From assembly GCA_964607835.1 (NCBI GenBank), contig CAZSLL010000007.1, positions 1-56,458 of the forward strand: a DNA stretch of 56,458 bases. Direction: 5' to 3'. Below are positions 6,001 to 51,313 of this stretch, one piece after another. Each line of letters opens with the position of its first letter. The first letter of the stretch is position 1. Source of the stretch: an uncultured archaeon. Its GTDB lineage: Archaea; Aenigmatarchaeota; Aenigmatarchaeia; QMZP01. Position numbers and translations under genes: made by a program. The notes under the pieces are model-generated. The model was not told the DNA's origin. It made no database searches and saw nothing but the letters and a program-made list of their open reading frames with translations.

Positions 6001-9000
6001 GGCAACATCACAGGTCTATCAGACGGCTCCCAGAGTTACAGGGCCTTTGCCATCGACAGGGCAGGCAATCTGAACATCACTCCCTCCAGGGACATCACAA
6101 TAGACCTCACCAACCCGGCAGTGACCTGGGAGGACCCCACCCCTGACCCTGACGAGACCATCAAGAATGACTGGGCCTACCTCAACACCACCATAACCGA
6201 CCACTCCATGACATCGGCATTCCTCGACTGGGACTACTCCCTTGTGGGCTACTGGTCAATGGACTCCTACAACTCGACTGCTGTCCTGGACAACTCCACA
6301 CATGACAATGAACTAGTGCTCGACGGGATAACCACGGGAAGCATAACCAAAGGTAAGTTCGGCAACGCCATGGATTTCTCGGGCAGCCTTGGCAACCTCA
6401 CAACCACCCCGTCAAACGGCATACTCGAGGACAACACCAGCTACACCCTGGAGGCCTGGTTCAGGAGGAACGACGTCTCAGGAAGGGAGGACATAATCTA
6501 CGCCTCCCTGTCAGCAAGGCACCTCGATACATATGATGACGAACTTGTCAGCTGGGTCAAGAACGGCTCTACCTGGGTATCTGCTAGAGGCGGCACCATA
6601 ACAGCAGGTCAATGGCACCACGCAGCAACTTCGTATGACGAAGACACAAGAAACCTCACCCTTTATATGGACGGTGATCTTGTGGACTACCTGCTCATTG
6701 GTGATGGGGCTATAGCGTCCAGTGGCAGCGATCAAATAGGCGGGGCAACTACCTATAGCTTCGACGGCCTCATAGACGAGGTTCGTGTGCACAGACGGGC
6801 GCTGAGCCATGACGAGATAAGGGCGTCCTACAACAACAGCATCTACCGCCTGGAGGGGAACATAACCGGCCTTGGCATTGGAAACCACAACTACACAGCC
6901 TACTCAATTGACGAGTTCGGGAACCTGGGAATCACGGGCGAGAGGAACGTTTCCTACTATGTGGACAACGAGCCCCCTGTTATCACAGTATACTCCCCAG
7001 AGAATGCCACATACACATCCGGCTCCATACAGCTTAATGTGTCAGCGGACGACGGCACTGATACCTGGTGGTACGAGCTGAATTCAAACGGCACCAACGT
7101 CACGTTCACCCCCAACTCCACCATATTCACGGGATTTGACGGTCTCAATAACATAACTGTGTGGGCCAACGAGACCAACGGCAACACCAACTCCACCATT
7201 GTCTGGTTCACCCTGGACACCATAAAGCCAGTTATATTGTGGGAGGACCCCACCCCAACTGACGGGCATTCAGGGAGCGAGAACTACGCAGAGCTCAACA
7301 CCACCATACTGGACAACACCACAACGACCGCCCTGCTCGACTGGAACTACTCCCTGGTGGGATACTGGTCCATGGACCACTACAACTCAACAGGGGCATA
7401 CGACAACTCAAGCTATGAGAACTTCGCCACCTACACTAACGGCGTGTCTGATTCAGATATGGAAAGGGGCATGTTCGGCAAATGCGTTTCCCTCGATGGA
7501 AGCTCTTACCTGAACGCTGGCAACGGCAGCAGCTTTGACATAACAGACGAGATAACGGTCTCGTTCTGGATGAAGCACAACTCGGCAAGCCAGAAGCAGA
7601 TACTGCTCGGAAAGGATGATGCCTATGCGTTCTGGTTCAACGGGACTGACGTGAGGTTCGCTGTCTGGATAAGCAGCAACTACAGGGAATCAGGCTACAC
7701 CAGCATAACCATGCAGGAGGGCGAGTGGTACCATGTCACGGGCAGGTTCAACGGAAGCCAGGTCCAGGTATGGGTGGACGGCACCAAGGAGAGCTCAGGG
7801 GACTTCTCAGGAAGCATTGACACCTCTGTCCATGACTTCAGGATAGGCGGGGACATCTCGCTCTGGGAGGACAGGTACTTCAACGGGTACATTGACGAGG
7901 TGGCTGTGCACAGCAGAGCCCTCTCCCCCCAGGAGATAAACGCCTCCTACGACAACAGCCAGTACAGGCTCATGGGAACATTCTCCTCCCTTACTGAGGG
8001 CAGATACGAGTATTACGCATACGCGAATGACAAAGGAGGCAACCTCAACATGACCGGCATGAGGTCATTCAGCATTGACAACAACCCTCCTCACGCGATA
8101 GAGTTCGTGTCCCCGACCCCCAGCAACAACACCCGCCAGACAGGGAACTCCCACGAGATAAACGTGACAGTATCAGACGCCCTGGCTGACATTGACGCCT
8201 GCCTGCTGGACAACGGCACGGCCAACATAACCATGACCATGGAGGGTTCAGGCACTGACGTCTACTGCCACTACACCCTCTCCACTACTGACGGCACTGA
8301 CTACAACCTCACAGTGTGGGCCAATGACACGGGTGGAAACCTCAACCAGTCAGCCCAGCTCAACTTCAGGGAGAACGATGAGCCCTCCATAACAGGCGTT
8401 GACGTGACCCCAGACTCCCCCTCAACCACGGATGACCTGCTCTGCACGGTGTCCGGCTGGTCAGACTCAGAGGGAGACTCCCAGCAGTACTGGTTCTACT
8501 GGTACAGGGATGATGTTCAGCAGATGGCCTTCCTGCAATCCGGGACCACCCACACCCTGCTCTGGGGCAACACCTCCTCGGGTGAGGAGTGGAACTGCAC
8601 GGTCATCCCGTATGACGGATTCGAAAACGGCACGATCATGGACGACACCGTTACCGTGAGCCAGGGATGCGTCATAGACACCCACGTGACCCTGTCAGCA
8701 GACCTTGACTGCACAGGGCACAGGCTCAACATAACCTCCTCTGGCGAGCTCGTTGCGGGGGCCTACAACGTCACGGCTGACAACGCCACAATAAAGGGCA
8801 ACCTTACCTCCACCACAGGAAGCCTCAACTTCACGGACTCCTCTGGCGTCATTGTCTTCTCGGGCTGCAACGTGACCGCAGGCTCAGGGCCTGACTTCCT
8901 GGGCTCCCTGAACGTGGACTCGGGCGGCGAATACAGCGCCACCTCTGATACAACGGAAATCGAGACAGACTGGAACATCTCGGGCACCTTCACCCACAAC

Positions 9001-12000
9001 TCAGGTATCGTGGAGCTCACGGGAACCGAGAACTCTGCCCTAATCGGCACAGATAGCCTTTACACCCTGCTCATAAACAAGGCCGCAACCGCTGACATAT
9101 GCACCCCGCAGAACGCCCTATCCATAAGCAACAACCTCACCATAGAGGAGGGCGAGTTCAACGCCACGGGCTTCACCCACGCGATAGGCGGCTCCCTGAC
9201 CAAGACAGGGGGCTCCCTGAGGCTCTACAGCGATTCATCCTACCTCAACATCGAGGACCACCTAATATCCACGGGCGGGACCCTGACCGACGCCTCTTCC
9301 TCCAGGATATACGTGAAGGGAGACGTCCACATAACAGGGAGCTCGCTAAACATTTATCCAGCAAGGCTATACCTGGACGGCAACAGGAACTCCACCATAT
9401 ACTCACCGGACAGCCAGGTGGGTTATGCCCTTAACATAGAAAAGGACACGGGCTACAAGGTCACTGCAGAAAGCGACCTCAATTACCGGCACCTTTTCCA
9501 CCAGAATGGTTATTTCGATGTGAATGGCCATACTGTTGACGGCTACGGCGTGTACTACGCATACTCGGGGGCAATCCTGATGATGTCCTCAGGGACCCTC
9601 GAGGTTGGTAATAACGGCTACAATGGGGGGACATACAGCCCCTGGTACTGCGGAAACGGCTGGAGCGAGGAGATTTCCGGGGGCACTATCCAGGTCTACG
9701 GCAGCATAAACGGAAACGGCTACGGAACAGCCCACTTCGCCTCGGGCTCTGACTTCACGCCCTCAGGAGGACTGTTCAGGCTCATAGGAACGGACGATGG
9801 AGAGATACAAGTCCTTGAGTCCACGAACTTCGGTTTCCACGACCTGGAGATTGACAGGACTGGCCAATGGGTGAAATGCTCTGAAAATCAGGAAATGGTA
9901 GTAAATAATGATTTCAACATAACAGCCGGAACTTTCATCACCAACGGCAACGATGTTTCCACCGCATACCTCAATGTTTCCTCAGGCGCCTCCCTGAACG
10001 TGACCAACGAGAGCACCCTGACCATGACGGGCAGCCTCATACTCGAAGGCTCGTTCAACGTGAACAACGGAACCGCGAAGAACATCACCCTGAATGGAAC
10101 AAAGTTCACGGTTTCAGGCGAGGCCGTTCGCATCGAGAACTACCTCTCAGAGCCCGCGGACGGCAACGGCATACACAATATCTCCAAGTACGTCAACCTC
10201 ACTGACCTGGGAGGGGGCTCATTCGGTCTTAACGTCTCCTACGAGGACTCTGACCTCGGCTCTGTACCCGAGGCGAGCCTCGAGATGTATAGGCACTCTG
10301 GCAGCTGGGGCCTCGAGGCGGGCTCTGGCGTGGACCAGGAAACCAACACAGTGGAGGCCACAGGCATATCCAGCTTCGGCCTGTTTGCCCCCATGGGCAA
10401 CAACGCCCCCAGTATAACGAGCATAGATGACTCACTGGAGACCCTGGAGCCCACTGACACCCAGACCATAACCCCCTCAGGCCAGGCAGACGCTGACTCA
10501 GACGCCCTTGACATGTACTGCTGCGTGGACGGTTCGGACTCCTGTACCCCCACCGCGGCCAACAACAACTGCACAGGAGGCAACTGGGAGGACCAGGCGT
10601 CCCCCTACGGCTCCATGGATTGCACTTATCCCGCTGGCTCCTCCCAGGGCACTGAATACGTGAGGTGCAGGCTCTATGACGGAAACGATTACTCTTCCAC
10701 GGTATCTGAGAGCTACACCATAGGCCTGGCCGGACCAACCTCGCTTTTGGTTTCCATAAACGATACATATGCCCTGAATGCTGAACTCGGCGGCCTGGCT
10801 CTTTCCTGGACAGATGGCTCCAGCCAGGAGGACGGCTATTACCTCTATCGCTCACAAGACAACTCCTCATGGAGCCTTCTTTCAACAGAGTCTGCCGACA
10901 CTCAATCATACTCTGACATAGACGTGAGCGACAACGCCCTATACCATTACAGGGTAAGGGCATACAAGGGAACCGAGAACTCATCCTACTCAAACGTGGC
11001 CTGGAACATGACTGCTGACAGGACAGGCCCGGAGCAGCCCAATCTCACGGCATCGGCGGACAACTCTGGTAATCAGGTGCTCCTCGACTGGGTCCAGGAG
11101 GATGAAGGGCTCCTGCTTTACGCCCCAATGGAGAACGTGACAGGGGACGGCACAGAGGACTGGAGCAATTACAGCCACTCCATCATCCCCCAGAGCGACC
11201 CTGCCCAGCAGGAGGGGATATTTGGGAACGCTGCAGAGCTTGATGGTAATGATGCATTCAACGTGACAGGCGACCTGGGCAACTCCTCTGAAATGACCCT
11301 CATGATGTGGTTCAACGCCACTGACCACAACAGCGGGACTCAATACCTCGCAGACGGAAGGGCAGGAGGAGGCTCCTGGTGGTTCATATCTGATTATACA
11401 GGAGGCTATTGCGGGGCTGACACCGAGGGCAACCTCTGCTTCGAGAACCTGGTCATGGTGCATTCTGACAACCTGTCCAGCAACGACTGGTACCATGTCG
11501 CTGTCACCCAGGACGGCTCTGCAACCAAGATATACCTGAACGGTGTTCTCATGGAGACAGGCTCGGGCTCTGACCCTGACATAGGGGAGGGCATGAGGAT
11601 AGGCAGCAGGTACACTGACGCCAGCTATTTCGACGGCCTTATTGACGAGGTCAGGGTGTACGGCAAGGTCCTGGGCCACTCTGACATAATCGACGACTAC
11701 CAGTCTGGCCTCATCAACCACGCCCTTTACAGGGCAGAGTCTTATTCAGGGCCCTACTCGTTCGTGAACACATCCTCAAATCTGCTCATCAACCCCGGCT
11801 TCGAGGCAGACTCCACCTGCCTGGAAACCGACCCGACTGGATGGACCCATGTCTCCCCATCAGGCGACTGCTGGGAGGTAGAGAGCGGGGTTGTAAATAG
11901 CGGGTCACAGGCCTTCGGCAACAGCTACGGATGCGACGCTTACTGTGATGACGAGGGCCAGGCAGGCTCATGGCCCGACATCTATGTGTACCAGAATGTG

Positions 12001-15000
12001 AGCGTCTCCGACCCCGGGACTGTATATGCCTCAGCCTATATTTACCTGAGCGGAGACCCATCGACATGCGGTGAATGTGGTGACCCGTATCACTGCATAC
12101 TGGAGGACGATGGAAGGATACACCTCTACGCCTATGATTCTGACGGGAATCTGCTCGATGAGTTCAAGGGAGACTGGGGAGGCGACTACAGATACTCCTC
12201 AGGGTGGAACCTTTTCGAGGAGACCTGGATTCCGCCAGAGGGCACTGCAAAGATAAGGATGCAGGTTGACGGAAGCGATAACAACAACAACTGCCTCACA
12301 GACCCGGGATCAGAAGGGGATTATGACGAATCCGGCATAGGCAATACAGCCCTCTACGTGGATGACGCTGTGCTCTATACGCTCCCTGCGACCAACAATC
12401 TCACAGACACTGAGGCCACGGACACCTCCCCGCCTGACTCTCCCTCTATAGCAGCAACCGCCCACAACCAGACCCAGATAAACATTACCTGGACCAATCC
12501 ACAGGACAACGGAAAGGGTTACTACTATTATCTCTCATCATATGATGATGAGGGAAACATCAACGACTACTTCACTGACTCCAACGTGGTCACCAACACA
12601 GATCTGGACACCGGCTGGTCAAAGGGCTATACGAGCGACATACAATGGAATGACATTGACCCGCCGCTTGGAATCAACGCAGAGGTGGTTAGCTTCGTGG
12701 ACGAGGACAGCTCCGGCTCATGCTATTGGTACAGCTACGGGGACTACGCGCCCCAGGACAATGACACCACCTATGTTGTCTCGCTCTGGGTAAGGACTAA
12801 CAGCTCCTCTGATGTTGAGGTGAGGTTCTACACAGCCGACAATAGCGAGGCAGACAGGACGACGGGAGAATACAGGTATGTCAATGCCTCTGAGGGATGG
12901 AAGCTCCTGGTTTGGGATGCCTTCACGACCGCCGACCCCACTGACAGCGACAGCCTGAGCTTCAATTTCAGGGAGATGGGCACATCAAGGCTCTGGCTTA
13001 GTGCCCCCCAGATGGAGCCGGCTGAATACCCGACTTTCATAGAGAACGACACCGTGACCACCGGCTTCAAGCAGCTGAGAATCCAGACCAACTCAAGCGG
13101 GTCGTGGAGCGACATTGACACCGATTCCTCCAGTCCGTTTGTCCATGGTGGGCTTGACCCGCACACAGAATACTGCTACAGGGCATACTCAGCGGACAAT
13201 GCAGACAACGAGAACCCCACTGTATCGGCCTATACCTGCGCGGAGACCGAAAACTCTGTTCCCTACATGACCGGGATAACCAGCACCAAAGACCCTGTTC
13301 AGGGGGGCTCACAGCAGGAAATCAACGCCACCAGCCCGGAGGACGGGGACTCTGACGCGCTCACCTTTTACTGCTGCCTTGACGACTCAGACACCTGCAC
13401 CCCCACGGAAGCCAACCAGAACTGCACATCAGGGGCCTACAGCTCTGTTGCCAGCCCCTACACGGACATGGGATGCTTCTTCGATGTCCCCCAGTATGAC
13501 GGGACCCATTATGTTCGCTGCAGGCTCTGGGACGGGTACGACTACTCTCCCGAAGCCAACACAACCTCATTCGTCATCGATTCTGCTCCCCCATACTCCA
13601 TTGAGTTCGTGTCCCCGACCCCCAGCAACAACACCCGCCAGACAGGGAACTCCCACGAGATAAACGTGACAGTATCAGACGCCCTGGCTGACATTGACGC
13701 CTGCCTGCTGGACAACGGCACGGCCAACATAACCATGACCATGGAGGGTTCAGGCACTGACGTCTACTGCCACTACACCCTCTCCACTACTGACGGCACT
13801 GACTACAACCTCACAGTGTGGGCCAATGACTCAGTGGGCAACCTCAACCAGTCAGCCCAGCTCAACTTCAGGGAGAACGACGAGCCCTCCATAACAGGCG
13901 TTGACGTGACCCCAGACTCAGCCACCACGGATGATGACCTGCTCTGCACGGTGTCCGGCTGGTCAGACGCTGACGGTGACAGCGAGCAGTACTGGTTCTA
14001 CTGGTACAAGGATGATGTTCAGCAGATGGCCTTCCTCCAGTCCGGGACAACCCACACACTGCTCTCTGGCAACACCTCCTCAGGAGAGGAGTGGAACTGC
14101 ACGGTCATACCATATGATGGCCACGAAAACGGCACCTCCCATGATGACACAGTGACCATAGGCAACAGCCCGCCGAGCCTGGACCAGACCGAGCTCTACC
14201 CCGCTGCCCCTGACACAGCGGACAGCCTTGAGCTCAACGCCACCTGCTCTGACAACGATGCGGGCGACTCGCTGACAGTTTACTGGTACATATGGAAGAA
14301 TGATACCATGGTGTCCGCGCTCACGGGCTCTTCAGGCGTGGCAAACGGTGACGAGGAGCTCGTTTACACCATACTGTCCTCCAACACCTCAAACAACGAG
14401 GAGTGGTGGGCAGAGGTGTGGTGCGATGACGGCACCACCAACACCTCGCACTCAAACACCACAAAGCGATACATAGCCAACACCCCGCCCTATATGCAAA
14501 GCATAAGCGAGTCCGATGACCCCATAAAGGGAGGGGATACCCAGACCATAACCCCATCAGGCCAGACAGATGTTGATGAAGACGCCCTTGACCTCGTGTG
14601 CTGCCAGGACGGTGACGACTCTTGCACCCCCACCACTGGCTCCAACATATGCACGGGCGGGAGCTGGGAGGACCAGGCTTCACCTTACGGCTCCATGGAC
14701 TGTACATTCACAGTCAATTCAGTGGACGACGCCACCTATTATGCAAGGTGCAGGCTCTGGGACGGGTACAGCTACTCCACTCAGGTGAACTCGACCTCAT
14801 TCGTGGTGGACTCCACAGCCCCCACCACCACGGACAACTCCTCATCGACCTGGGCAGACTCGGCCACTATCAGGCTAACCTGCAATGACGGTGCAGGCGT
14901 GGGGTGTGACACCGTTGCCTACTGCATTGACACCGATGGCGGCGGGGCTGACTGCTCTGTGGACACCTATACAGACATATCGGGCGGGATAGTTGATATT

Positions 15001-18000
15001 GACATACCCTGCCCGGCGAACCAGGTGTGCTACAGGTACGTGAGGTACCAGTCCAACGACACGGTGGGCAACCTGGAGACCCTCACTGACAGCAGCCAGA
15101 TAAGGATTGACAGGAAGAGCCCTGACTACAACGGGGTATCCAACATAAGCGGCCAGTCCTACAATGACACCACCACCGAGTACTGGGTGACAGGGGGAGA
15201 CAACTTCTCCATAAGCATAAACCACTCTGACGTGGGCTCTGGCATGAACAGGCAGTACTTCGGATTCAACCACGATGACTGCGGACCCAATTCCTGCGGG
15301 GGCGAGCCGGACGAGATAAAGTCCTACATCACCAACGGCGCCAGCTTCAGCGACTGGTCAGGCTTTGTCAATGACAGCTACGTGAACATACTCGAGCCGG
15401 GATGCGCTGACATCGACGGGGACTGCGATGACAATGATTTCGTTTACAACTGGACCACTGCCATAAACGCCTCCTGTCCTGACTGGGACTGGAAGCTCCA
15501 CACCTACGCACGCGACGACGTGACCAACGGTAGAGGCTACAATGACACCGGTGTATGGGTGTACGTGGACAACAGTGCTCCCAACATATCTTCTGTCTCC
15601 CTGTCTGCCTACTCAGCCAAGGAGGGGGACGAGCTCACGGTCACCAGCGACGGCGAGGACCAGCGGTCAGGCATAGGCACCTGCCACGCCTACCTGAGCA
15701 CTGACGCCTCCTATGACGGAGGAGACGATGACCTCGGGGACCTGGGAACTGACTGCGACGGGACCGTGAGCATTCCCTCAAAGGCAGACGGCACGTATTA
15801 CATAATAGTGAGGCCTGTTGACAACGTGGGCCTTTCATCCGAGTCAGCCAGCTCTGCCCTGAGCCTGGACAGCTCAGCATCCCTGATTGTGTGGGAGGAG
15901 CCCACCCCTGCAGAGGGTGCCTTCAGGGACAGTAACTGGGCCTACCTCAACACCACTGTGACAGACTCCCAAGAGACCTCTGCCTTCCTTGACTGGAACA
16001 ACTCCCTTGTGGGCTACTGGTCCATGGACTTCTACAACGCCTCAGGTGTCTTCGACAACTCCACCAGTGGCAACTTCGCGAACTTTGTGGGCGGCCCCTC
16101 AACGAGCGATTTAATTACAGGAAGGTTCGGCAGTGCAATAGAATTTGACGGCGAGAATGATTATCTCAACTCAGGGGCCAACCATGACCTGGAAACCAGC
16201 CATGGCACCATAGAGTACTGGATAAGATGGGCAGATGACACACAAAGCGGATCTGCGTTCCATTTCTATGAGTCATCCAGCTCGGATTACATACGTTCGT
16301 ATTACAATGGTGATGGGCGCATTGACCTGGTCATAGAGGACGGTGACTCAGCAATGGTTAGCGTAAACTACCAGCTTGACCCTGTGAACGGGACATGGTA
16401 CCATATTGTGTGGACCCAGGACGGTAATCAGGCGAGGCTTTACATAAACGGTTCTGCCAAGAGCCTGAGCGGGACCAACAGCGGCGAATGGTGGAGCGAC
16501 CACCTATCACTGGCAAGCACGAGAATAGGCGTTGGGTGGGGCTACTTCAAGGGAGCCATCGACGAGTTCAGGGTGTACAGCAGGGCACTCTCCCCAGAGG
16601 AAATCAACGCTTCCTACAACAACAGCGCATACAGGCTCAGGCACAACTTCACAAGTCTGGACGAGGGCGAGTATGACTACACTGCGTATGTCATGGATGC
16701 TGTTGGCAACCTTAACAAGACCTCCACAAGGAACGTTACCATTGACACCATAAAGCCTGTCATAGACTGGGAGGACCCCACCCCGACAGACGGCTCCTCC
16801 AGGCAGGAGGACTGGGCTTATCTCAACACCACAGTGAATGACAACACCACGACATCTGCATTCCTGGACTGGAACCACTCCCTGGCAGGGTACTGGTCCA
16901 TGGACTTCACCAACTCCTCGGGCGTCCTGGGTAATTCGAGCTACGGCCACTTCTGCCAGTACGTGGGCGGACTGTCCGGCTCTGACCTGGACGACGGGTA
17001 TTTCGGAGATGCCCTGAATTTCGACGGAGGGAATGATTACCTGCTCTGCGAGGGCGAAGACGGCAGCCTGGATATCACCGATGCCATAACAGTGGAGGCC
17101 TGGGTGAAGCCCTCCACCACAACAGGCTACAGGAGGATAGCCTCAAAGTCATACAACGGAATAACCACAGGAGCCAGCTGCTACCAGCTCGGGCTGAACA
17201 CGGACAACGAGTGGAGATGGAGCGTGGGTGGGGTTTTCGACGTTTCGCCTGCATCGCCAAAGCCCCAGGAAGGCAGCTGGTACCACTTCGTGGGTGTGTA
17301 CGACAGCTCAGAATCAGACTTCAGGATGTACGTTAATGGAAACCAGATATCATCGAGCTCGAGTTACAGTGACCCGATACGCTCCAACACCAGCGAGCCT
17401 CTCACCATAGGCGCCAACTACTATGACGGCTCGAGGAACTACGAGTTCGCGGGCATGATTGATGAGGTGCGTGTGCACAGCCGCGCACTGACAACAGAGG
17501 AGGTGAACGCCTCCTACAACAACGGCCTCTACCGCCTGGAGCGGAACTTCACATCCCTGTCAGAGGGCGACTACGACTACCAGGCCCGGGCCATTGACCG
17601 GTCAGGGAACCTCAACACCACCACATCCAGGACCGTGACCATTGACCAGAGCGCACCCTCGATAACCATACAGAGCCCGCTCAACCAGACCTACAACGAG
17701 TACACGGTCGACCTCAACGTGACCACGAGCGAGCCCGCTTCCGCCTGCCTCTACAATCTGGGCGGCGGGGCAAACCACACCCTTGACAACGACTCCACCA
17801 CCAACTGGTTCGCTGTCATAACCACTAACTCTGACAGCATATACCACCTCAGCGTCTACTGCAACGACACCCAGTCCAACATGGGACTCAACGATACCGT
17901 GTGGTTCACCGTGTCCACCACCAAGCTCAACATCACCAGATTCTTCAGCCCGGACCCGCTCTACGCAGGGGACAATGAGACCATAAGGGTCAACACCACA

Positions 18001-19770
18001 GTGCAGGTAAACCAGACCTCCAAGGATATTGTCCAGGTCAACATCACAGACCAGATACCCTGGGACTTCACCGCGCCCGATGCAGGGGACGTGAAGGTAT
18101 ACTTCGTGGACGATTCTGCCGGGACAAAGACAGACATCACAGAAGACGCCCCGGTGAGCGTGGCCATCCAGGACCAGGCCGGGAGCCTCGCCACCCTGCT
18201 CAGGGTAAACATAACGGACGTCTCGGCCACGAGCGCGGGAGACTACCTGGAGGAGAACGACTCCATACTGCTCTACTACACCATGGTGTCCTCGAAGCTC
18301 AACGCATCAGGCAGCAGGCTCATGTACACCAACGCCACTGTGACCAACAACGATTCCCAGGGTAAGACAGACTACATTCTGTCCAACCTCACTGCATACG
18401 ACGTCCTTCTCAGGGGCTACAAGACCATATGGGCCAAGGACCTGGCTAACCCACAGAACCTGAGCATAGAGATTATGTTCAGGGCAAGGGGAGGGCCGAG
18501 CAGCGGAATCTACATTGCCGACTACCTCCCCCAGGGCTCCACTGTGAAGGACCTAAACGTCACTCTCTACAACTCCTCGAAGGGCGAGTGGGTCCAGCTT
18601 GTCAACGGCTCTGACTTCTACATAGACCTTGAACACCCGGGCGCCACGGTCCTGCCTGACGGCCTGTACGTGGATATACACCACTATAACTTCAGCTACA
18701 TGTTCGCAAACTGGGACGGCAACCTCTACGACAACGATACCCTGAGGATAGAGTACAACATAACCGTGCTGGGAGGGGGCGAGTGGGAGCTTCCCACCAT
18801 AATAGCGGGCTTCGACCCTGAGTACAAGAAGCACATCAAGACCGAGATGTACGCATCTGCCAACGTGCCATCATTCGACATACTACTTGAGATGCTTACT
18901 GACAAGGTTACCCAGGGAGGCGTGGTCAAGGCCCTCCTGAGGATACTCAACGTGGGCGGGCCAAGGGCAAAGGTGGACGTTTTCGTGACCTATTCTGCCA
19001 AGACCCTGCAGGGCGAAATAGTCACAGAGAGGTCAGAGACACTTGCGGTGGTGGAGCAGAAGGAGAAGAGCCTGGACCTGCCCATACCCAATGACATTGC
19101 GCCTGGCACCTACACCTTCGAGAGCTACGTGACCTACACGGGGAGGGAGGCCCTGTCCACGGGCACCTTCAGGGTGGAGAGCGAGGGCGATGAGGCAGGG
19201 GTCATGGAGTATGGGCTGTACGTATTCCTTGTGGTCATCATAATAGTACTTACCGTGATGTATTTCAGGGCCACCAGGCGCAAGGGCTCATGCAGGCCCT
19301 CCATGCTGGTATGGCTCCTGCTGGCCCTGCTCCTGGCCCTGCCAGCTGTCTCGGGCATTTTCACAGGACGCATCACCGGGACCATGGAGGTCATCCAGGA
19401 CGAGCTCGATCCAGGGGATGAGCTCAAGGCCCTGTTCAAGCTCAAGAACCACGACTTCCGCGGATACAGGACAGACGTTTTCGTGGAATACTCCCTCTTC
19501 GACCAGGCCGGGCGGCTGGTGAAGGCCGAATCCGGCACCTTCCCTGTCTCTGACTCCAGGGACATACTCTTCAAGACTACAATACCCGGCGAGGCCGCGC
19601 CGGGGACCTACTCCCTTTCTGCCAACATGGAATACCAGGGCAACAGAAGCAGCTATTCTGACACCTTCGTGGTCAGCGGAGAGGAGAGCCCATTCATGCT
19701 ATACCTCGTGACCCTGCCCCTCATAGGGGCGGTGTTCGGGGTTTTGATTACAAGGAGGAAAGGAGATTGA
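1..19770 (+). CDS. Giant multidomain cell-surface protein/adhesin (>6,580 aa, 5'-truncated): partial propeller blade, 8 LamG domains, DxDxDG/FG-GAP propeller, Ig-like stalk repeats, beta-solenoid, FN3-like and CBM-like domains, Cys-rich repeats, 3 C-terminal TM helices
   Basis: Frame is open from base 1 (aac tgg aat gcc ccg GTG), so the true start is upstream. LamG motifs GYWSMD...FDG...W.H...DE(V/F)R.Y.RALS recur. Eight D-x-D-x-D-G-type loops at ~1195-2280. Very dense N-x-S/T sequons. Hydrophobic helices near the C-terminus, ending in RRKGD. Confidence 0.93.
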   Translation, partial: NWNAPVQALDRNLDSGNWDDTDIFSPCVIKDDDVYRMWYSGDTSGVQRILHTKTSFIDSSGNRNPGMSWGSYLPTLEDSGTVGFLGNNTYDFDGGDYIRLREIDLTGEWTVAYWFNQDTNDRMTVGKNGETANYFRHISDGATLRINYNDDSSKDLSVGGSLNTWHHLVVTSNGSSSGPNITAYLDGELVDSATQPDPRFRIDNIGFPYTSGLQWDGGLDEIAVWNRTLSDAEVSEIYGRQDMRFTGNYTSQAFTPGYRVAWTNLTWLNTTDSSSTIEVRTRTSNKLDCSGDWTPWSEPRTNPSSLINVSANCLQYRAVFTTTNMSEDNQLELANMTFGDRPSDFDCWDEETDDETKPPPPSGYVEQNVYEDTDVHFWANFTEDLTSKIIGRTITRVDLDNYIYRVEAGDIDGDSKPELAVGRLSGGNELRVYENDGTQKWVNNTDGSVYGLAMADLDGDGSLEVVSGSTDGMVNAFDSAGDLIWPSRYDAGEDVQVLAASDVDGDNTPDVIVGTRNQTGHELRVLDGSDGTLLWSEDMNESVYDLDVGDLDGDGVDDIAVGIKDGYVYAYNGSGAKLWEYAAGGKVMSVVIGDVGSDGSNEVAIGRDVGSYEFRLLHGSSGTLDWQKDPGSRVGYEWFSEEIIAIGDVDSDGSNDVVFGSWDGYVYAYDSSGSSLWSYNADAPVFAVSMEDTDGDGGVEVAVTVDDEEKALKVVGPTGSSEWWMGFTENMFDLESHDIDSDGIKDVVTGSFDTHAYALRGATCRIWFNDTATWTYMNWSYEDNLWSHSRVFEDPNEYEWNMSCSFGNYQYQYRYSNITIMAVEDPPDPKFVDPTPENETKRKLDWIHVRVFSDKEIGTCTLNWINSSGNVNITMTKEASGVYCNKNMTGLGNEDHYFRAYVSDTSGNLNVTEDREVTIDTVTLAPRFISPTLSNTSTTPHNWLYINVSGGKAIDTCYLDWPGSGNESMFVDGSYCYLNKTGLSDSSYYFMVWANDTTFGSFNSTEDRELTVQTGLADCVGAAVGDPVATCHKCGVDYAKLTIIGPTGTGSYGPVSMGFDSQTGACTAADANKTNWTYDLGYAFCPAEGQYNGSVTFNAEGDTNVDENTGTDWPLYNIVYDDTQGWCECADYEWMTAADSGNGECCGDDGASDTFGNATDGYTCSYCDSGVSTTNTPPNIPATGSTSPDYAYPEDNVTVSSVITDPDSDDVHVLVYDTPERDTLLCTGSTVSSGQSSSCKFSAPDAGCINGTCVLYLYANESTVDYCGDTKMNESYGTAEFQYDASPEITVINPENTSYQTQLLDLNVSTKYASSACLYNLDGGSNTTLQNDSSSNWFYAMDTGGSGLFELQVYCNTTTGVWGMETLWFTVDNSPPAITLASPSNSSYRTTSIDLNASASEEVEAWWYELNNDGVNRSFTPNSSITTTLEGLNNITVWANDSAGNNGSTSLVWFTLDRFTPLIDWVDPTPTDGVYRNKSWAHLNTTVTDNTTTSAFLDWNYSLVGYWSMDHYSSSGVYDNSSNNWFGTWYGGLGTDNITEGRFGKGLDFDGSDDRVVINGDSPFPVNFSDKGLTVTAWIKTSSTGTRKSVWGGNGNSAYYNLRVDDGERAEFWLGSSPSNNLVEGTTTLQPGTWYFLVGVWDPSVPELRVYVNATEEDSGFNGNYPNNQQYARNCIGQKNNDERMHGVIDEVRIYSRALSPEEINASYDNSLYRLNANITGQADGFYNYSAYVIDSAGNMNITGTRNVTLDATKPVIQWEDPTPPDGNITGNDWVYLNTTVTDTTGTSAFFDWDSSLLGYWSMDSYNSSGVFDNSSYGDFMAFDSITSANITEGRFGNAMDFSGCSGNLTAAASASLGDNASYTLEAWFKRNDVSGREDILYASVAARQLDTSNSALQGSIRNGTTWTSITGGTITAGQWHHGAAVFDEENRNFTIYLDGELVNYIVLTGGTIASTSSYTIGGVPSLSFDGFIDEARVHSRALSHDEIRASYDNDANRLEGNITGLSDGSQSYRAFAIDRAGNLNITPSRDITIDLTNPAVTWEDPTPDPDETIKNDWAYLNTTITDHSMTSAFLDWDYSLVGYWSMDSYNSTAVLDNSTHDNELVLDGITTGSITKGKFGNAMDFSGSLGNLTTTPSNGILEDNTSYTLEAWFRRNDVSGREDIIYASLSARHLDTYDDELVSWVKNGSTWVSARGGTITAGQWHHAATSYDEDTRNLTLYMDGDLVDYLLIGDGAIASSGSDQIGGATTYSFDGLIDEVRVHRRALSHDEIRASYNNSIYRLEGNITGLGIGNHNYTAYSIDEFGNLGITGERNVSYYVDNEPPVITVYSPENATYTSGSIQLNVSADDGTDTWWYELNSNGTNVTFTPNSTIFTGFDGLNNITVWANETNGNTNSTIVWFTLDTIKPVILWEDPTPTDGHSGSENYAELNTTILDNTTTTALLDWNYSLVGYWSMDHYNSTGAYDNSSYENFATYTNGVSDSDMERGMFGKCVSLDGSSYLNAGNGSSFDITDEITVSFWMKHNSASQKQILLGKDDAYAFWFNGTDVRFAVWISSNYRESGYTSITMQEGEWYHVTGRFNGSQVQVWVDGTKESSGDFSGSIDTSVHDFRIGGDISLWEDRYFNGYIDEVAVHSRALSPQEINASYDNSQYRLMGTFSSLTEGRYEYYAYANDKGGNLNMTGMRSFSIDNNPPHAIEFVSPTPSNNTRQTGNSHEINVTVSDALADIDACLLDNGTANITMTMEGSGTDVYCHYTLSTTDGTDYNLTVWANDTGGNLNQSAQLNFRENDEPSITGVDVTPDSPSTTDDLLCTVSGWSDSEGDSQQYWFYWYRDDVQQMAFLQSGTTHTLLWGNTSSGEEWNCTVIPYDGFENGTIMDDTVTVSQGCVIDTHVTLSADLDCTGHRLNITSSGELVAGAYNVTADNATIKGNLTSTTGSLNFTDSSGVIVFSGCNVTAGSGPDFLGSLNVDSGGEYSATSDTTEIETDWNISGTFTHNSGIVELTGTENSALIGTDSLYTLLINKAATADICTPQNALSISNNLTIEEGEFNATGFTHAIGGSLTKTGGSLRLYSDSSYLNIEDHLISTGGTLTDASSSRIYVKGDVHITGSSLNIYPARLYLDGNRNSTIYSPDSQVGYALNIEKDTGYKVTAESDLNYRHLFHQNGYFDVNGHTVDGYGVYYAYSGAILMMSSGTLEVGNNGYNGGTYSPWYCGNGWSEEISGGTIQVYGSINGNGYGTAHFASGSDFTPSGGLFRLIGTDDGEIQVLESTNFGFHDLEIDRTGQWVKCSENQEMVVNNDFNITAGTFITNGNDVSTAYLNVSSGASLNVTNESTLTMTGSLILEGSFNVNNGTAKNITLNGTKFTVSGEAVRIENYLSEPADGNGIHNISKYVNLTDLGGGSFGLNVSYEDSDLGSVPEASLEMYRHSGSWGLEAGSGVDQETNTVEATGISSFGLFAPMGNNAPSITSIDDSLETLEPTDTQTITPSGQADADSDALDMYCCVDGSDSCTPTAANNNCTGGNWEDQASPYGSMDCTYPAGSSQGTEYVRCRLYDGNDYSSTVSESYTIGLAGPTSLLVSINDTYALNAELGGLALSWTDGSSQEDGYYLYRSQDNSSWSLLSTESADTQSYSDIDVSDNALYHYRVRAYKGTENSSYSNVAWNMTADRTGPEQPNLTASADNSGNQVLLDWVQEDEGLLLYAPMENVTGDGTEDWSNYSHSIIPQSDPAQQEGIFGNAAELDGNDAFNVTGDLGNSSEMTLMMWFNATDHNSGTQYLADGRAGGGSWWFISDYTGGYCGADTEGNLCFENLVMVHSDNLSSNDWYHVAVTQDGSATKIYLNGVLMETGSGSDPDIGEGMRIGSRYTDASYFDGLIDEVRVYGKVLGHSDIIDDYQSGLINHALYRAESYSGPYSFVNTSSNLLINPGFEADSTCLETDPTGWTHVSPSGDCWEVESGVVNSGSQAFGNSYGCDAYCDDEGQAGSWPDIYVYQNVSVSDPGTVYASAYIYLSGDPSTCGECGDPYHCILEDDGRIHLYAYDSDGNLLDEFKGDWGGDYRYSSGWNLFEETWIPPEGTAKIRMQVDGSDNNNNCLTDPGSEGDYDESGIGNTALYVDDAVLYTLPATNNLTDTEATDTSPPDSPSIAATAHNQTQINITWTNPQDNGKGYYYYLSSYDDEGNINDYFTDSNVVTNTDLDTGWSKGYTSDIQWNDIDPPLGINAEVVSFVDEDSSGSCYWYSYGDYAPQDNDTTYVVSLWVRTNSSSDVEVRFYTADNSEADRTTGEYRYVNASEGWKLLVWDAFTTADPTDSDSLSFNFREMGTSRLWLSAPQMEPAEYPTFIENDTVTTGFKQLRIQTNSSGSWSDIDTDSSSPFVHGGLDPHTEYCYRAYSADNADNENPTVSAYTCAETENSVPYMTGITSTKDPVQGGSQQEINATSPEDGDSDALTFYCCLDDSDTCTPTEANQNCTSGAYSSVASPYTDMGCFFDVPQYDGTHYVRCRLWDGYDYSPEANTTSFVIDSAPPYSIEFVSPTPSNNTRQTGNSHEINVTVSDALADIDACLLDNGTANITMTMEGSGTDVYCHYTLSTTDGTDYNLTVWANDSVGNLNQSAQLNFRENDEPSITGVDVTPDSATTDDDLLCTVSGWSDADGDSEQYWFYWYKDDVQQMAFLQSGTTHTLLSGNTSSGEEWNCTVIPYDGHENGTSHDDTVTIGNSPPSLDQTELYPAAPDTADSLELNATCSDNDAGDSLTVYWYIWKNDTMVSALTGSSGVANGDEELVYTILSSNTSNNEEWWAEVWCDDGTTNTSHSNTTKRYIANTPPYMQSISESDDPIKGGDTQTITPSGQTDVDEDALDLVCCQDGDDSCTPTTGSNICTGGSWEDQASPYGSMDCTFTVNSVDDATYYARCRLWDGYSYSTQVNSTSFVVDSTAPTTTDNSSSTWADSATIRLTCNDGAGVGCDTVAYCIDTDGGGADCSVDTYTDISGGIVDIDIPCPANQVCYRYVRYQSNDTVGNLETLTDSSQIRIDRKSPDYNGVSNISGQSYNDTTTEYWVTGGDNFSISINHSDVGSGMNRQYFGFNHDDCGPNSCGGEPDEIKSYITNGASFSDWSGFVNDSYVNILEPGCADIDGDCDDNDFVYNWTTAINASCPDWDWKLHTYARDDVTNGRGYNDTGVWVYVDNSAPNISSVSLSAYSAKEGDELTVTSDGEDQRSGIGTCHAYLSTDASYDGGDDDLGDLGTDCDGTVSIPSKADGTYYIIVRPVDNVGLSSESASSALSLDSSASLIVWEEPTPAEGAFRDSNWAYLNTTVTDSQETSAFLDWNNSLVGYWSMDFYNASGVFDNSTSGNFANFVGGPSTSDLITGRFGSAIEFDGENDYLNSGANHDLETSHGTIEYWIRWADDTQSGSAFHFYESSSSDYIRSYYNGDGRIDLVIEDGDSAMVSVNYQLDPVNGTWYHIVWTQDGNQARLYINGSAKSLSGTNSGEWWSDHLSLASTRIGVGWGYFKGAIDEFRVYSRALSPEEINASYNNSAYRLRHNFTSLDEGEYDYTAYVMDAVGNLNKTSTRNVTIDTIKPVIDWEDPTPTDGSSRQEDWAYLNTTVNDNTTTSAFLDWNHSLAGYWSMDFTNSSGVLGNSSYGHFCQYVGGLSGSDLDDGYFGDALNFDGGNDYLLCEGEDGSLDITDAITVEAWVKPSTTTGYRRIASKSYNGITTGASCYQLGLNTDNEWRWSVGGVFDVSPASPKPQEGSWYHFVGVYDSSESDFRMYVNGNQISSSSSYSDPIRSNTSEPLTIGANYYDGSRNYEFAGMIDEVRVHSRALTTEEVNASYNNGLYRLERNFTSLSEGDYDYQARAIDRSGNLNTTTSRTVTIDQSAPSITIQSPLNQTYNEYTVDLNVTTSEPASACLYNLGGGANHTLDNDSTTNWFAVITTNSDSIYHLSVYCNDTQSNMGLNDTVWFTVSTTKLNITRFFSPDPLYAGDNETIRVNTTVQVNQTSKDIVQVNITDQIPWDFTAPDAGDVKVYFVDDSAGTKTDITEDAPVSVAIQDQAGSLATLLRVNITDVSATSAGDYLEENDSILLYYTMVSSKLNASGSRLMYTNATVTNNDSQGKTDYILSNLTAYDVLLRGYKTIWAKDLANPQNLSIEIMFRARGGPSSGIYIADYLPQGSTVKDLNVTLYNSSKGEWVQLVNGSDFYIDLEHPGATVLPDGLYVDIHHYNFSYMFANWDGNLYDNDTLRIEYNITVLGGGEWELPTIIAGFDPEYKKHIKTEMYASANVPSFDILLEMLTDKVTQGGVVKALLRILNVGGPRAKVDVFVTYSAKTLQGEIVTERSETLAVVEQKEKSLDLPIPNDIAPGTYTFESYVTYTGREALSTGTFRVESEGDEAGVMEYGLYVFLVVIIIVLTVMYFRATRRKGSCRPSMLVWLLLALLLALPAVSGIFTGRITGTMEVIQDELDPGDELKALFKLKNHDFRGYRTDVFVEYSLFDQAGRLVKAESGTFPVSDSRDILFKTTIPGEAAPGTYSLSANMEYQGNRSSYSDTFVVSGEESPFMLYLVTLPLIGAVFGVLITRRKGD
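8101..8655 (+). repeat. Intragenic direct repeat, copy 1 (first 228 bp identical to 13603-13830)
   Basis: Base-by-base comparison: 8101-8328 equals 13603-13830, and near-identity continues for ~330 bp more. Offset 5502 bp, in frame. Confidence 0.95.
10399..14811 (+). repeat. Three Cys-rich Ig-like repeats (CC.D..D.CTPT....CT.G....ASPY..M.C...RCRL.DG..YS) at ~10399, ~13252 and ~14479
   Basis: Conserved Cys spacing in three places in the translation. Confidence 0.85.
13603..14157 (+). repeat. Intragenic direct repeat, copy 2
   Basis: Same comparison as copy 1; both encode EFVSPTPSNNTRQTGNSHEINVTVSD...EEWNCTVIPYDG. Confidence 0.95.
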
Positions 19771-19771
19771 A

Positions 19772-19975
19772 ATGGTGTATGCCAAGTACATAACCCGGAA
19801 GGGCAAGGACGGCAAGCCAGTGAAGTACGGGCCCTATTACTACAAGAGCGTTCGCACAGAAGACGGAAGGGTCCGGAACATATACCTGGGTACCAAACCT
19901 GTCCGGGACAAACCCAAACCAAGCGGAAAGATGAACCTGAGGCAGATAAAGGACGTGCTCGCGAGCGTGTTCTGA
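19772..19975 (+). CDS. Small basic protein (67 aa) with GPYYY.SVR...G.V...YLG motif; putative nucleic-acid-binding beta-sheet protein
   Basis: Starts 1 nt after the giant gene stop, with GGAG upstream. Lys/Arg/Tyr-rich. Function is inferred from the motif only. Confidence 0.8.
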   Translation: MVYAKYITRKGKDGKPVKYGPYYYKSVRTEDGRVRNIYLGTKPVRDKPKPSGKMNLRQIKDVLASVF

Positions 19976-20229: not shown

Positions 20230-21702
20230 TCAGGTGTAAACCCTGAGCCTGCTGTAGAGCTTCCTTATCCGCTCGTAGATTTCCCCTGCCTCCTGGTAGC
20301 TCTCTGCCCTGTTGAGCTGGTTGTACATGGAAAGGGCCTTCCTGTAGAGGTTCTTGGCCTCGTCCATGTCGTTTCCCTTGATGCTCTCCTCTGCCCTCTC
20401 GATTATGGAGTCTATTCCCTCCCTTATGCCATCCACTGACTGCTCGCCCTTCTTCGAGGGCGCCACTGGCACTGATTCCTTTCTGACCTGCCTGGCAGTC
20501 CCCTTTGCGCTTGCCCTGGGAACGTCAGCGAAGGAGCTCCTCTCCCTGCTCTCCTGGGCTTCCTGGCTGGCCTTCGCGAAATCCCGAACCTTCTCCTCTG
20601 CTGTGGAGGAGGCGGCCTTCCTGAGCTCCTCCAGGCTTTCCCTGAGGGAGTCAACCTCCTCCCTGGTGGCGAACATCTTGTCCACTTTGGACTTGCCCAC
20701 CTCCTCCAGGAGCCCCTTGAGCCCTGCCTCCTTGAGCGACTTGAGCAGGTCGCTCATGATGTCCTTCATCTCGTAAATCTTATCATCTGTCTTTGTCTCC
20801 ACCCCGCTTATCTTGTCCTCTATGCTGGTCTGGAAATTCTTGAAATCATCCTTCTTGACAAGTCCGCCCATCCTGGTCTCCAGCATGTCAGCCGACTTCA
20901 TGAGCTCGTGCATGGTCTCCTCGTTGAATGATATCTTGTCCTTGAAGCTCTGGAACTCAGCCAGCCTGCTGCTCATGTCAGAGAACATGCTCTCTATCTT
21001 GGCCGCTGTCCTGGATGCGTATTTCCTGTGCTCCTCGACCTTGTCCACCTTCTCCTGGAGGGTCTTTATTAGCTTTACCAGGTTCTTGACGTCCCTCACG
21101 TTCTCCAGAATTTCAGAGATGTCCTTGACCTCCTTGCGGGCCTCCTGCATCTGCATTCCAACCTTCTCGAGCCCTGCCTCGTTCTTCTCTATGCCCTCCT
21201 CGAGCTTGGCGAATCTGGAGGCAACCTTCTCGGGCTCCATGGCCTCGGCTGTTTCCTTTATCCTGGTGAATCCGCCCTGGAACTCCCTTATGAGCTTGTC
21301 CTTCTCCATTATGGAGGACCTGAGCTCGCCAATCTCCTGGTTGAGCCCGGAGAGCCGCTCTTCAAGCGCTCCCCTGGACTGTGCGGCCGCGTCGAGCTTG
21401 CCCTCGAGCTTCTCGGTCTTCAGGAGCAGCATGTCCATGCTGGTGCCGCCTGACTCCTTCCCTGATGATGACTTGGGAGACTCTTCTTTCTCGTCTTCCT
21501 TTGAGGCCTTCTTGAGCTTGATGCTCTTGCCTTCCTTCTTCTCCAGCTCATCGAACTCTGATGAGGAGATGACGTTCTCCTCGTGCTCAGAGTCCTTGTT
21601 CCCCTCTCCCTTGCCTGGCTTCCTGGCCTCTTTTTCCTGGGGCTTCTTTCCCTCAGAGCCGTCTGCCTTGCTGTTTTTCTTGACCTTTATCCCCAAAATC
21701 AA
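20230..21702 (-). CDS. Long coiled-coil cytoplasmic protein (490 aa) with charged N-terminus and helical C-terminal domain
   Basis: E/K/L-rich heptad pattern over ~300 aa, no TM helix. The TTG start overlaps the TGA stop of the upstream gene (TTGA), with GGTGA upstream. Confidence 0.88.
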   Translation of the reverse strand: MILGIKVKKNSKADGSEGKKPQEKEARKPGKGEGNKDSEHEENVISSSEFDELEKKEGKSIKLKKASKEDEKEESPKSSSGKESGGTSMDMLLLKTEKLEGKLDAAAQSRGALEERLSGLNQEIGELRSSIMEKDKLIREFQGGFTRIKETAEAMEPEKVASRFAKLEEGIEKNEAGLEKVGMQMQEARKEVKDISEILENVRDVKNLVKLIKTLQEKVDKVEEHRKYASRTAAKIESMFSDMSSRLAEFQSFKDKISFNEETMHELMKSADMLETRMGGLVKKDDFKNFQTSIEDKISGVETKTDDKIYEMKDIMSDLLKSLKEAGLKGLLEEVGKSKVDKMFATREEVDSLRESLEELRKAASSTAEEKVRDFAKASQEAQESRERSSFADVPRASAKGTARQVRKESVPVAPSKKGEQSVDGIREGIDSIIERAEESIKGNDMDEAKNLYRKALSMYNQLNRAESYQEAGEIYERIRKLYSRLRVYT

Positions 21703-30720: not shown

Positions 30721-30951
30721 TTACTTTGAGGCCTTGGCGGCAGAGGGTTTCACGGCTTCCCTGAGGTTGGATATCTCCTTCCTGAGCTCCCTGAGCTCGT
30801 TGCTGAGTTGGAGCTCCTCTGCATCAAACTTCCTGGTTATCACTCTCAGCTGCCTGAACTCGAACTCCAGTATTATGAGGTAGACCACCACTACGGTGGA
30901 GAAAATGACCAGGAGCTCCAGTATGGGCACATCGATTCCGAATATGTACAT
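30721..30951 (-). CDS. Small bitopic membrane protein (76 aa): N-terminal TM helix plus coiled coil
   Basis: LLVIFSTVVVVYLIIL helix followed by ELQLSNELRELRKEISNLREA. Starts 14 nt after the upstream stop. Confidence 0.82.
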   Translation of the reverse strand: MYIFGIDVPILELLVIFSTVVVVYLIILEFEFRQLRVITRKFDAEELQLSNELRELRKEISNLREAVKPSAAKASK

Positions 30952-47062: not shown

Positions 47063-47127
47063 AGATTAAGCGTTAAACAATAATATAAGAAATTATGGAT
47101 AGGACGGTTCCGCTATTCCGCTAGGCC

Positions 47128-48318: not shown

Positions 48319-48427
48319 CAAATCACAATACAGAATTATATGTTCCCGCTTCTTTTAAAGCATATGCCTTTTGCCGGGGAAAACCGGAATATTAATAACC
48401 ATGCGCACAATTTAATATTGTGTTACC

Positions 48428-48982: not shown

Positions 48983-49013
48983 GGGGCATGAGCCTTTTCC
49001 CGGTTCCTGGCAT

Positions 49014-50927: not shown

Positions 50928-50928
50928 A

Positions 50929-51306: not shown

Positions 51307-51313
51307 GAACTAT

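Follow-up and report, generated by a model that had tools for sequence, protein, structure and literature searches.

Giant surface proteins with a VirB4-like ATPase, the SPEARE proteins, are the leading candidates for the means by which DPANN archaea attach to their hosts and take up host material. The SPEARE giants of Nanohaloarchaeota reportedly go back to Hamm et al. 2019 and were re-analysed in PMC10266531. Their polypeptide is described as a signal peptide, an immunoglobulin-like (Ig-like) domain, two WD40/PQQ propellers and ~75 Ig-like domains, continued by a transmembrane (TM) segment, a cytosolic VirB4/TraG-like ATPase and a coiled coil; a second VirB4/TraG-family ATPase gene lies directly downstream, and the authors propose a secretion 'straw' (PMC10266531). 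Here we describe a related locus of a tiny, uncultured archaeon (Aenigmatarchaeota, QMZP01) on 56,458 nucleotides (nt) of a microbial-mat metagenome (assembly GCA_964607835.1, contig CAZSLL010000007.1, positions 1 to 56,458), called the window below. One of its proteins, p2956 (named, like the others, by its length in amino acids, aa), follows the published SPEARE plan, with a Sec signal peptide, N-terminal propellers, a long Ig-like ectodomain, one TM segment and a cytosolic ATPase, and the archaeon, like the Nanohaloarchaeota that encode SPEARE proteins, is a DPANN symbiont. Three further envelope proteins of the locus, a plus-strand protein of 6,584 aa (the giant) and the minus-strand proteins p1067 and p1126, share one homologous module of ~310 aa near the membrane, which we call the pedestal. 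This shared module is previously undescribed; the literature on the module, on the p1067/p1126 family and on an Aenigmatarchaeota surface locus yielded nothing specific. The giant converges on a minus-strand row of five open reading frames (ORFs), and the genes and module parts are placed in the window as follows.

16..19770, plus strand: giant surface protein, 6584 aa within the window, N-terminus beyond the window start
34389..37592, minus strand: p1067, a paralogue of p1126, with signal peptide, all-beta ectodomain and C-terminal TM segment (aa 1027-1045)
30966..34346, minus strand: p1126, with signal peptide, ~9-10 beta-sandwich domains and C-terminal TM segment (aa 1090-1108)
30721..30951, minus strand: 76-aa ORF between p1126 and p2956, with one TM segment and a coiled-coil helix
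21699..30569, minus strand: p2956, with signal peptide, propellers, long beta ectodomain, pre-TM domain, TM segment and cytosolic ATPase
20230..21702, minus strand: p490, a cytosolic coiled-coil protein without TM segment or sequons, its start overlapping the p2956 stop
17548..19215, plus strand: conserved base of the giant (aa ~5845-6400), the sole part collinear with its homologues (41-56% identity)
17920..18402, plus strand: module beta-sandwich A of the giant (aa ~5969-6129), containing VKVYFVDD... and RVNITDVS...
18406..18768, plus strand: module beta-sandwich B of the giant (aa ~6131-6251), containing LRGYK and IADYLP
18769..18876, plus strand: module closing stretch of the giant (aa ~6252-6287), WELPTIIAGFDPEYKKHIKTEMY...
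35421..36407, minus strand: shared module in p1067 (aa ~396-724)
32010..33020, minus strand: shared module in p1126 (aa ~443-779), with three more beta-sandwich domains before the TM segment

An earlier, sequence-only reading of this DNA had aligned one block of the giant's base with p1067 and another with p1126, and every string that it quoted is found in the three proteins where it placed them. In the giant, VKVYFVDDSAGTKTDIT occupies aa 6026-6042 (nt 18091-18141), RVNITDVS...SILL aa 6063-6086, LRGYKTIWAKDLANP aa 6132-6146, IADYLP aa 6167-6172 and WELPTIIAGFDP aa 6257-6268 (nt 18784-18819). The counterparts in p1067 are VRVYHVNGTDQTDIT (aa 446-460) and FVNISDVSS...DIRL (aa 478-500), and those in p1126 are LTGYKDLVAYDPSSP (aa 616-630), FMDYVP (aa 654-659) and YVLPVTIAAFDP (aa 749-760). 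Pairwise similarity by BLASTP is modest: 26% identity over 277 aa (50-52 bits) between giant aa 6132-6393 and p1126 aa 616-861, and 23% over ~310 aa (37-40 bits) between giant aa 5993-6254 and p1067 aa 401-694. Family hidden Markov models (HMMs) give 92.8 bits for the p1126-family module against the giant, and 64.7 and 32 bits for the giant-base family against p1126 and p1067, respectively. We then aligned the families as profiles, using 40 homologous proteins for the giant base (44-84% identity over the aligned part), 32 homologues plus the window's own protein for p1126, and 45 sequences for p1067. By hhalign the giant-base family matches the p1126 family with a probability of 99.7% (E 2.4e-25) over 327 collinear columns, giant aa ~5960-6284 falling onto p1126 aa 402-776; it matches the p1067 family with a probability of 99.0% (E 7.7e-18), and the p1067 family matches the p1126 module with 99.8% (E 3.6e-30). 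With both alignments trimmed to the module, 30 column shuffles score at most 23.9, against 201.7 (E 1e-28) for the real giant-base/p1126 alignment. The similarity of the giant's base to both minus-strand proteins is therefore significant, but the assignment of each block to a separate partner is not upheld: the two blocks are halves of one collinear module that is complete in all three proteins, and p1126 carries its own 'DVKIYLN...LVQLTVNDLASCDL' block at aa 503-550.

The module is a collinear ~310-aa unit made of two beta-sandwich domains and a conserved hairpin. Its families are ~20% identical to one another and have in common the motifs (L/V)xGYK, DY(L/V)P and LPxxIA(G/A)(F/Y)DP, with the giant, p1126 and p1067 matching at probabilities of 99.0-99.8%. 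It lies within the secreted ectodomain and is followed by a pre-TM beta-sandwich and, at the C-terminus, by a TM anchor. Family HMMs find a single copy each in the giant, p1126 and p1067 and none elsewhere among the window's 213 six-frame ORFs, including p2956 and the giant's other ~6,000 aa. Between the module and a profile built from nine p2956 orthologues, covering the final 1,165 residues of the ectodomain, hhalign probabilities are 0.4-7.6%. Both a repeat of the module elsewhere in the giant or p2956 and the membership of p2956 as a fourth protein of the module family are ruled out by these HMM and hhalign results.

AlphaFold2 models describe the same arrangement. The model of giant aa 5960-6400 (pLDDT 76.9) contains sandwich A, sandwich B, the closing stretch and the pre-TM sandwich, with low confidence in the closing stretch (aa ~6253-6285); in the model of p1126 (pLDDT 77.7), which has ~9-10 sandwiches and the module at aa 443-779, the equivalent of this stretch (aa 747-776) is a beta-hairpin. 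Foldseek neighbours are generic: Ig-like domains of PrgB, C-terminal domains of antigen I/II, alpha-2-macroglobulin/complement MG (macroglobulin) domains, integrin thigh/calf domains, mastigoneme proteins and a viral DUF11 protein (BFVD). Their TM-scores are low (0.1-0.3 in PDB and BFVD), so the models point to an ordinary tandem Ig-like stalk and give no functional lead. Conservation, scored per segment in the p1126 and giant-base families, increases toward the membrane in both. In the p1126 family it is 0.38 for module A, 0.51 for module B, 0.65 for the proximal domain (aa 886-985) and 0.68 for the pre-TM domain, with no value for the hairpin; in the giant-base family it is 0.43 for module A, 0.54 for module B, 0.69 for the hairpin and 0.61 for the pre-TM domain, with no value for the proximal domain. 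The closing stretch, at a mean pairwise identity of 0.69, is the base family's most conserved segment.

The sequence-only reading had allowed that the domain might be a generic DUF11/Ig fold found in many unlinked proteins. Generic is an apt word for the fold, which is the Ig-like beta-sandwich of DUF11/CARDB (a likeness of fold only, not family membership), and the 'v.v.D.lP.G' strand motif of the module recalls DUF11. It is not apt for the sequence family, which is rare and specific. Searches of the module, p1067 and p1126 against Pfam and NCBIfam returned no named family, PDB sequence searches with both family profiles gave no hit, and neither giant aa 5501-6584 nor p1126 nor p1067 is matched by the Pfam models of DUF11 and CARDB at E <= 0.1. 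The sole Pfam match there is a sub-threshold MG2 (23 bits against a cutoff of 32.8) on the second pre-TM domain of the giant (aa ~6466-6552). A joint profile searched against 1.84 billion representative proteins has 195 matches at E <= 1e-3, and the best 150 of the 195 all fall within three families: p1126-like, p1067-like and giant base. The profile has 1,025 positions including columns specific to p1126 and p1067, so the list favours these two families; the base family was recovered despite this bias. BLAST classification of the proteins retrieved across both searches gives 71 p1126-like, 64 p1067-like and 68 giant base/body proteins, with none left over. The p1126/p1067-like proteins are uniformly ~1,000-1,190 aa long, and library matches of the giant base/body family range from ~440 to 3,960 aa with the module always C-terminal. 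The named homologues and 26 genome loci come nearly all from metagenome-assembled genomes (MAGs) of Candidatus Aenigmatarchaeota, a DPANN phylum, and a few module contigs are labelled Nanohaloarchaea or Methanosarcinales. The contigs with a base module in MAGs labelled Methanosarcinales (loci L018, L026 and L030) are probably mis-binned, or symbiont contigs co-binned with a possible host.

Within the giant's family the base is constant and the body varies. Thirteen longer homologues are collinear with the giant only over the part that corresponds to its aa ~5750-5975 to ~6360-6582, with 41-56% identity, and in most of them this part begins at aa ~5845; the last ~550 aa of the giant are kept, and the rest shares LamG/Big-type repeats at non-corresponding positions only. 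The ORFs bearing the base vary in length from 633 and 651 aa (two genes in L001) through 712 (L004), 744 (L006), 1,047 (L013, a complete 1.05-Mb chromosome), 1,426 (L020), 1,674 (L014), >3,514 (L015) and >3,828 aa (L023) to >6,584 aa in the window, where '>' marks a lower bound. The short forms are real genes, since a hydrophobic signal segment stands at the N-terminus of the 651-aa protein itself. On the 270-kb JGI (Joint Genome Institute) contig of L001 (7118-19304), both stand-alone base proteins are preceded by a Peptidase_S74 protein, of 938 or 1,450 aa, and the next gene after them is the p1067 orthologue. This suggests that the distal fibre can be encoded apart from the base. Directly upstream of the base gene, the unrelated contigs of L001 (16714-17289) and L004 (9359-9934) each have a 191-aa ORF that neither matches Pfam nor resembles the large proteins of the window; a Peptidase_S8 giant also lies upstream of the base gene in L004.

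To follow the linkage of the genes, we matched the window proteins to the six-frame ORFs of 30 loci and took as informative the 24 in which the DNA continues for 1.5 kb or more past the base gene. A cluster gene (p1067, p1126 or p2956-p490) immediately adjoins the base gene in 15 of the 24, in three gene orders. The convergent p490-p2956 order of the window recurs in L007, L008, L010, L011, L016, L023, L027 and L029; p1067 stands beside the base, followed by p1126 where the contig goes on, in L001, L004, L013, L014 and L026; and p1126 then p2956 stand beside it in L022 and L024. L003 repeats the order of the window with TrkA, an unknown gene, p1064, p1141, a 72-aa ORF, p2962 and a p490 homologue. 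The p1126 orthologue of L004 is split into two overlapping ORFs of 441 and 518 aa (15458-18326), owing either to a frameshift/pseudogene or to an assembly error. Linkage is frequent, not universal, because nine informative loci show no cluster gene in the available flank. In the sequence-only reading, a shared assembly or polymerisation module joined both transcription units into one structure. Gene order supports a functional link between the units, but a role of the module in assembly or polymerisation would be speculative, and the module does not link all four large proteins because p2956 lacks it.

Other pieces are shared as well, and for these the parts of the giant beyond the module are needed.

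18877..19200, plus strand: pre-TM beta-sandwich 1 of the giant (aa ~6288-6395), CARDB/MG2-like, ending ...APGTYTFESYVTY
19210..19749, plus strand: membrane anchor of the giant, with TM1 (19210-19266), a short basic loop and TM2 (19306-19362)
19399-19692 and 19693-19749, plus strand: second pre-TM-type domain and TM3, respectively, both part of the membrane anchor
1288..2277, plus strand: beta-propeller/FG-GAP region of the giant (aa ~425-754)

All four large proteins had been credited with a similar Ig-like domain just before the TM segment, but such a domain is common only within pairs, and there are two unrelated types. The type of the giant, which occurs there twice (aa 6290-6395 and 6462-6561), matches p2956 aa 2447-2551 (hhalign probability 96.7%, E 3e-10), and the pre-TM domains of p1126 and p1067 match one another. 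No match between the two types is significant (hhalign probabilities of 1% and 0.2%), which rules out a single domain common to the four proteins; the P..G.Y ending is a resemblance at motif level only. At the end of the giant, TM1 is followed by a basic loop, a signal-peptide-like TM2, the second pre-TM-type domain and TM3, and this end looks like the in-frame fusion of a small gene of the form signal peptide-domain-TM. L021 has the equivalent unit as an ORF of its own, 161 aa long (834-1316), and it is missing from the base proteins of L001. The giant and p2956 also have in common a beta-propeller/FG-GAP region (giant aa 425-754; p2956 aa 97-428, nt 29286-30281, minus strand) at 24-25% identity and 55 bits. 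Since propeller region and pre-TM domain type are both common to these two proteins, shared domains make a mosaic of the two transcription units.

The p2956 ectodomain carries PQQ-like beta-propellers (aa ~97-428) and Ig-like domains and closes with the pre-TM domain (nt 22917-23231 for aa 2447-2551); a DUF87/HerA-type P-loop domain follows as a cytosolic HerA/VirB4-like ATPase (nt 21702-22829). Its Walker A motif GSTGAGKS at aa 2637 is intact, and a Walker B-like VVFDEVH lies at aa 2768. The best NCBIfam matches, CedD (36 bits against a cutoff of 600), HerA, TraC/VirB4 and CedB, are all far below their cutoffs, and PDB matches are HerA-like hexameric ATPases at 18-29 bits. The last 433 aa of p2956 are 50-57% identical over 98-99% of their length to stand-alone proteins of 620-690 aa from Nanohaloarchaeota, Woesearchaeota and Aenigmatarchaeota; identity to those of Ca. 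Nanohalococcus occultus and Ca. Nanohalovita haloferacivicina is 50-52% over 99% of the length, and the former is annotated VirB4/TraG-like in UniRef. The coiled-coil protein p490 accompanies p2956 in all related loci. ORFs of 72 aa (L003) and 79 aa (L002) occupy the position of the 76-aa ORF, which is therefore probably a real small subunit. No ATPase is found in the giant, which abounds in LamG, Big and FG-GAP/beta-propeller domains and ends in TM segments and short basic tails. A hydrophobicity scan shows an N-terminal signal-like segment in p1067, p1126 and p2956, a single C-terminal TM segment in each of p1067 and p1126, a TM segment at aa 2562-2580 of p2956 followed by a ~375-aa cytosolic tail, three TM segments at the end of the giant and none in p490. 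N-x-S/T sequons for N-glycosylation number 1.0-5.0 per 100 aa in the ectodomains (3.5 in the giant), against 0-0.5 in cytosolic ORFs of the window. Cysteines number 97 in the giant ectodomain and 37 in that of p2956 against 3-5 in p1126 and p1067, which hints at disulfide-rich distal domains.

We consider it probable that the giant, p1126 and p1067 are pedestal proteins of one locus with a shared surface function, the module serving as a rigid stalk around the motor protein p2956. The three are paralogues of ancient divergence, all of them envelope proteins that are anchored in the membrane, probably glycosylated, and equipped with one lineage-specific ~310-aa pedestal each. In the giant's family, pedestal, pre-TM domain and TM anchor form a constant base bearing a hypervariable distal array, one that is nearly absent in the 633-651-aa proteins and reaches >6,500 aa of LamG, Ig-like and propeller domains in the window. 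One conserved locus, probably for a surface apparatus, encodes the three pedestal proteins along with p2956, the 76-aa TM/coiled-coil protein and p490. For the module itself, we think a rigid, constant stalk most likely, one that would hold its proteins within a single zone of the envelope, around the motor protein; together with the membrane-proximal domains it would make up the invariant part embedded in the envelope, and the distal arrays would be the part that evolves fast, faces the host and makes contact with it. The constant-base/variable-body anatomy makes the distal body the likely determinant of host specificity. The data establish the homology, the rarity of the family, the anatomy of base and body and the conserved linkage; co-function in one surface apparatus is what we infer from them, and direct contact between modules, with the module as an interface for hetero-oligomerisation, is speculation. 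Bolder still, and in our estimate unlikely, is the idea that the giant, p1067, p1126, the 76-aa protein, p2956 and p490 form one trans-envelope host-contact machine, with a pedestal collar around a hexameric HerA/VirB4-like motor and host specificity set by the exchangeable array of the giant. If true, archaeal symbionts would possess a 'feeding' or translocation apparatus of a structurally undescribed kind.

Several observations weigh against a shared function and would fit descent alone, with the module an inert spacer produced by tandem duplication and domain fusion, the proteins independent adhesins and their adjacency historical. p1067 and p1126 are adjacent paralogues, and neighbouring paralogues may simply persist from a tandem duplication. 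Base genes stand without a cluster gene in the available downstream DNA of 9 of the 24 informative loci, and p1059/p1125 of L002 lack a base gene within 10 kb. Neither in the p1126 nor in the giant-base family is the module the best-conserved region, and its predicted height above the membrane differs, one domain in the giant against three in p1126. Residues conserved across the families are mainly Gly, Pro, Tyr and Asp, which typically determine the fold, as expected of a shared fold rather than a shared interface. Conservation, height and residue types also count against a simple lateral contact between modules. In addition, the window sequence occurs in three DNA metagenome runs (microbial mat) and in zero RNA runs. 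We regard descent alone as plausible but as the less likely reading. An identity of ~20% implies an old duplication, yet the genes are adjacent across the phylum in three gene orders, and adjacency kept through three rearrangements at such divergence argues for selection on co-function and not for a duplication remnant alone. The convergent arrangement moreover takes in p2956 and p490, neither of which contains the module, sequence clusters are about equally numerous in the three families, and the conservation of the base but not of the body points to constraint beyond spacing.

Alternatively, p1067 and p1126 could be subunits of a surface-layer (S-layer) lattice, into which the giant would be inserted by means of the same lattice/stalk module. 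Both proteins have a signal peptide, several Ig-like domains, a TM anchor at the C-terminus and sequons, all of which would suit such a role, as would single-copy genes conserved phylum-wide, but S-layer genes do not usually stand in an operon-like row with a giant protein that bears an ATPase. Neither protein has an S-layer, MSTP or DUF1608 Pfam hit, and no S-layer protein is among the top 50 fold matches. A structure-prediction survey, furthermore, assigns the S-layers of Aenigmatarchaeota to an MSTP-like beta-sandwich class and not to Ig-like arrays (bioRxiv 10.1101/2024.05.28.596244). We consider this role improbable. Chance or compositional similarity among generic Ig-like domains, to which pairwise identities of just 23-26% and the generic fold neighbours might point, has a negligible probability: it is excluded by the hhalign scores, which extend over 250-330 collinear columns, and by the shuffled controls, and it would not account for the lack of matches in other Ig-rich parts of the giant and p2956 or for a library-wide search that gives three families only, among the matches listed.

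Two further regions of the window deserve mention. A small basic ORF (19772-19972, plus strand; ~66 aa, MVYAKYITRKGKDGKPVKYGPYYYKSVR...) starts immediately after the giant's stop codon, and its YGPYYY motif is reminiscent of DUF6788-type proteins. At ~46000-52000 the GC content falls from ~0.56 to 0.37-0.49, and a sequon-rich subtilisin-like protease (49014-50927, minus strand) and a sequon-rich 674-aa ORF (51314-53338, minus strand) are found; this region may be a laterally acquired island of additional surface proteins.

We know of no cultured representative of Aenigmatarchaeota, and the locus offers a concrete, conserved parts list for this phylum: a SPEARE-like motor protein, a pair of conserved envelope proteins of ~1,100 aa, a giant that has their pedestal in a base plus a variable array, and two small/coiled-coil proteins. 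Localisation, pull-down and structural studies would best aim at the base, and the module, with 195 clusters in 1.84 billion proteins, is a specific sequence marker for finding such loci in metagenomes.

Among known systems, the Ig-like stalks of bacterial adhesins (PrgB, 8BEG; antigen I/II, 3QE5/7L0O), MG domains and the thigh/calf domains of integrins have the same predicted fold as the module, and the Ig-like stalks share with it the anatomy of a beta-sandwich chain between a functional head and a cell anchor. Unlike DUF11/CARDB-type repeats, the module has no Pfam or PDB sequence match and is present in single copy instead of a repeat array. The base and body of the giant resemble phage tail fibres and tailspikes with Peptidase_S74 chaperone domains, in which a constant anchor is combined with an exchangeable distal part. 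This likeness would be functional only: the S74 proteins are found outside this window, no viral context was seen, and the base belongs to a TM-anchored cellular protein. Type IV secretion is a more distant comparison; no VirB4/VirD4-class ATPase reaches a curated score, and no other core component (VirB6/VirB3-like, pilin or relaxase) was found among the scanned window ORFs. SPEARE is the closest relative in plan, with differences in detail. At 2,956 aa, p2956 is shorter than SPEARE proteins of 5,000-9,400 aa, and the nanohaloarchaeal proteins that it matches are stand-alone ATPases of 620-630 aa, distinct from the SPEARE giants. The 6,584-aa giant is not a SPEARE protein, as no cytosolic ATPase follows its TM segments. 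The coiled coil lies inside the SPEARE polypeptide, but in the window and all related loci it is encoded by the separate downstream gene p490, with overlapping stop and start; taken together, p2956 and p490 make up a SPEARE architecture whose coiled coil is detached. PMC10266531 describes neither the pedestal module nor the p1067/p1126 pair, nor a linkage of these to the motor protein. With these additions, the locus is an Aenigmatarchaeota version of the giant-surface-protein/SPEARE theme of DPANN archaea.

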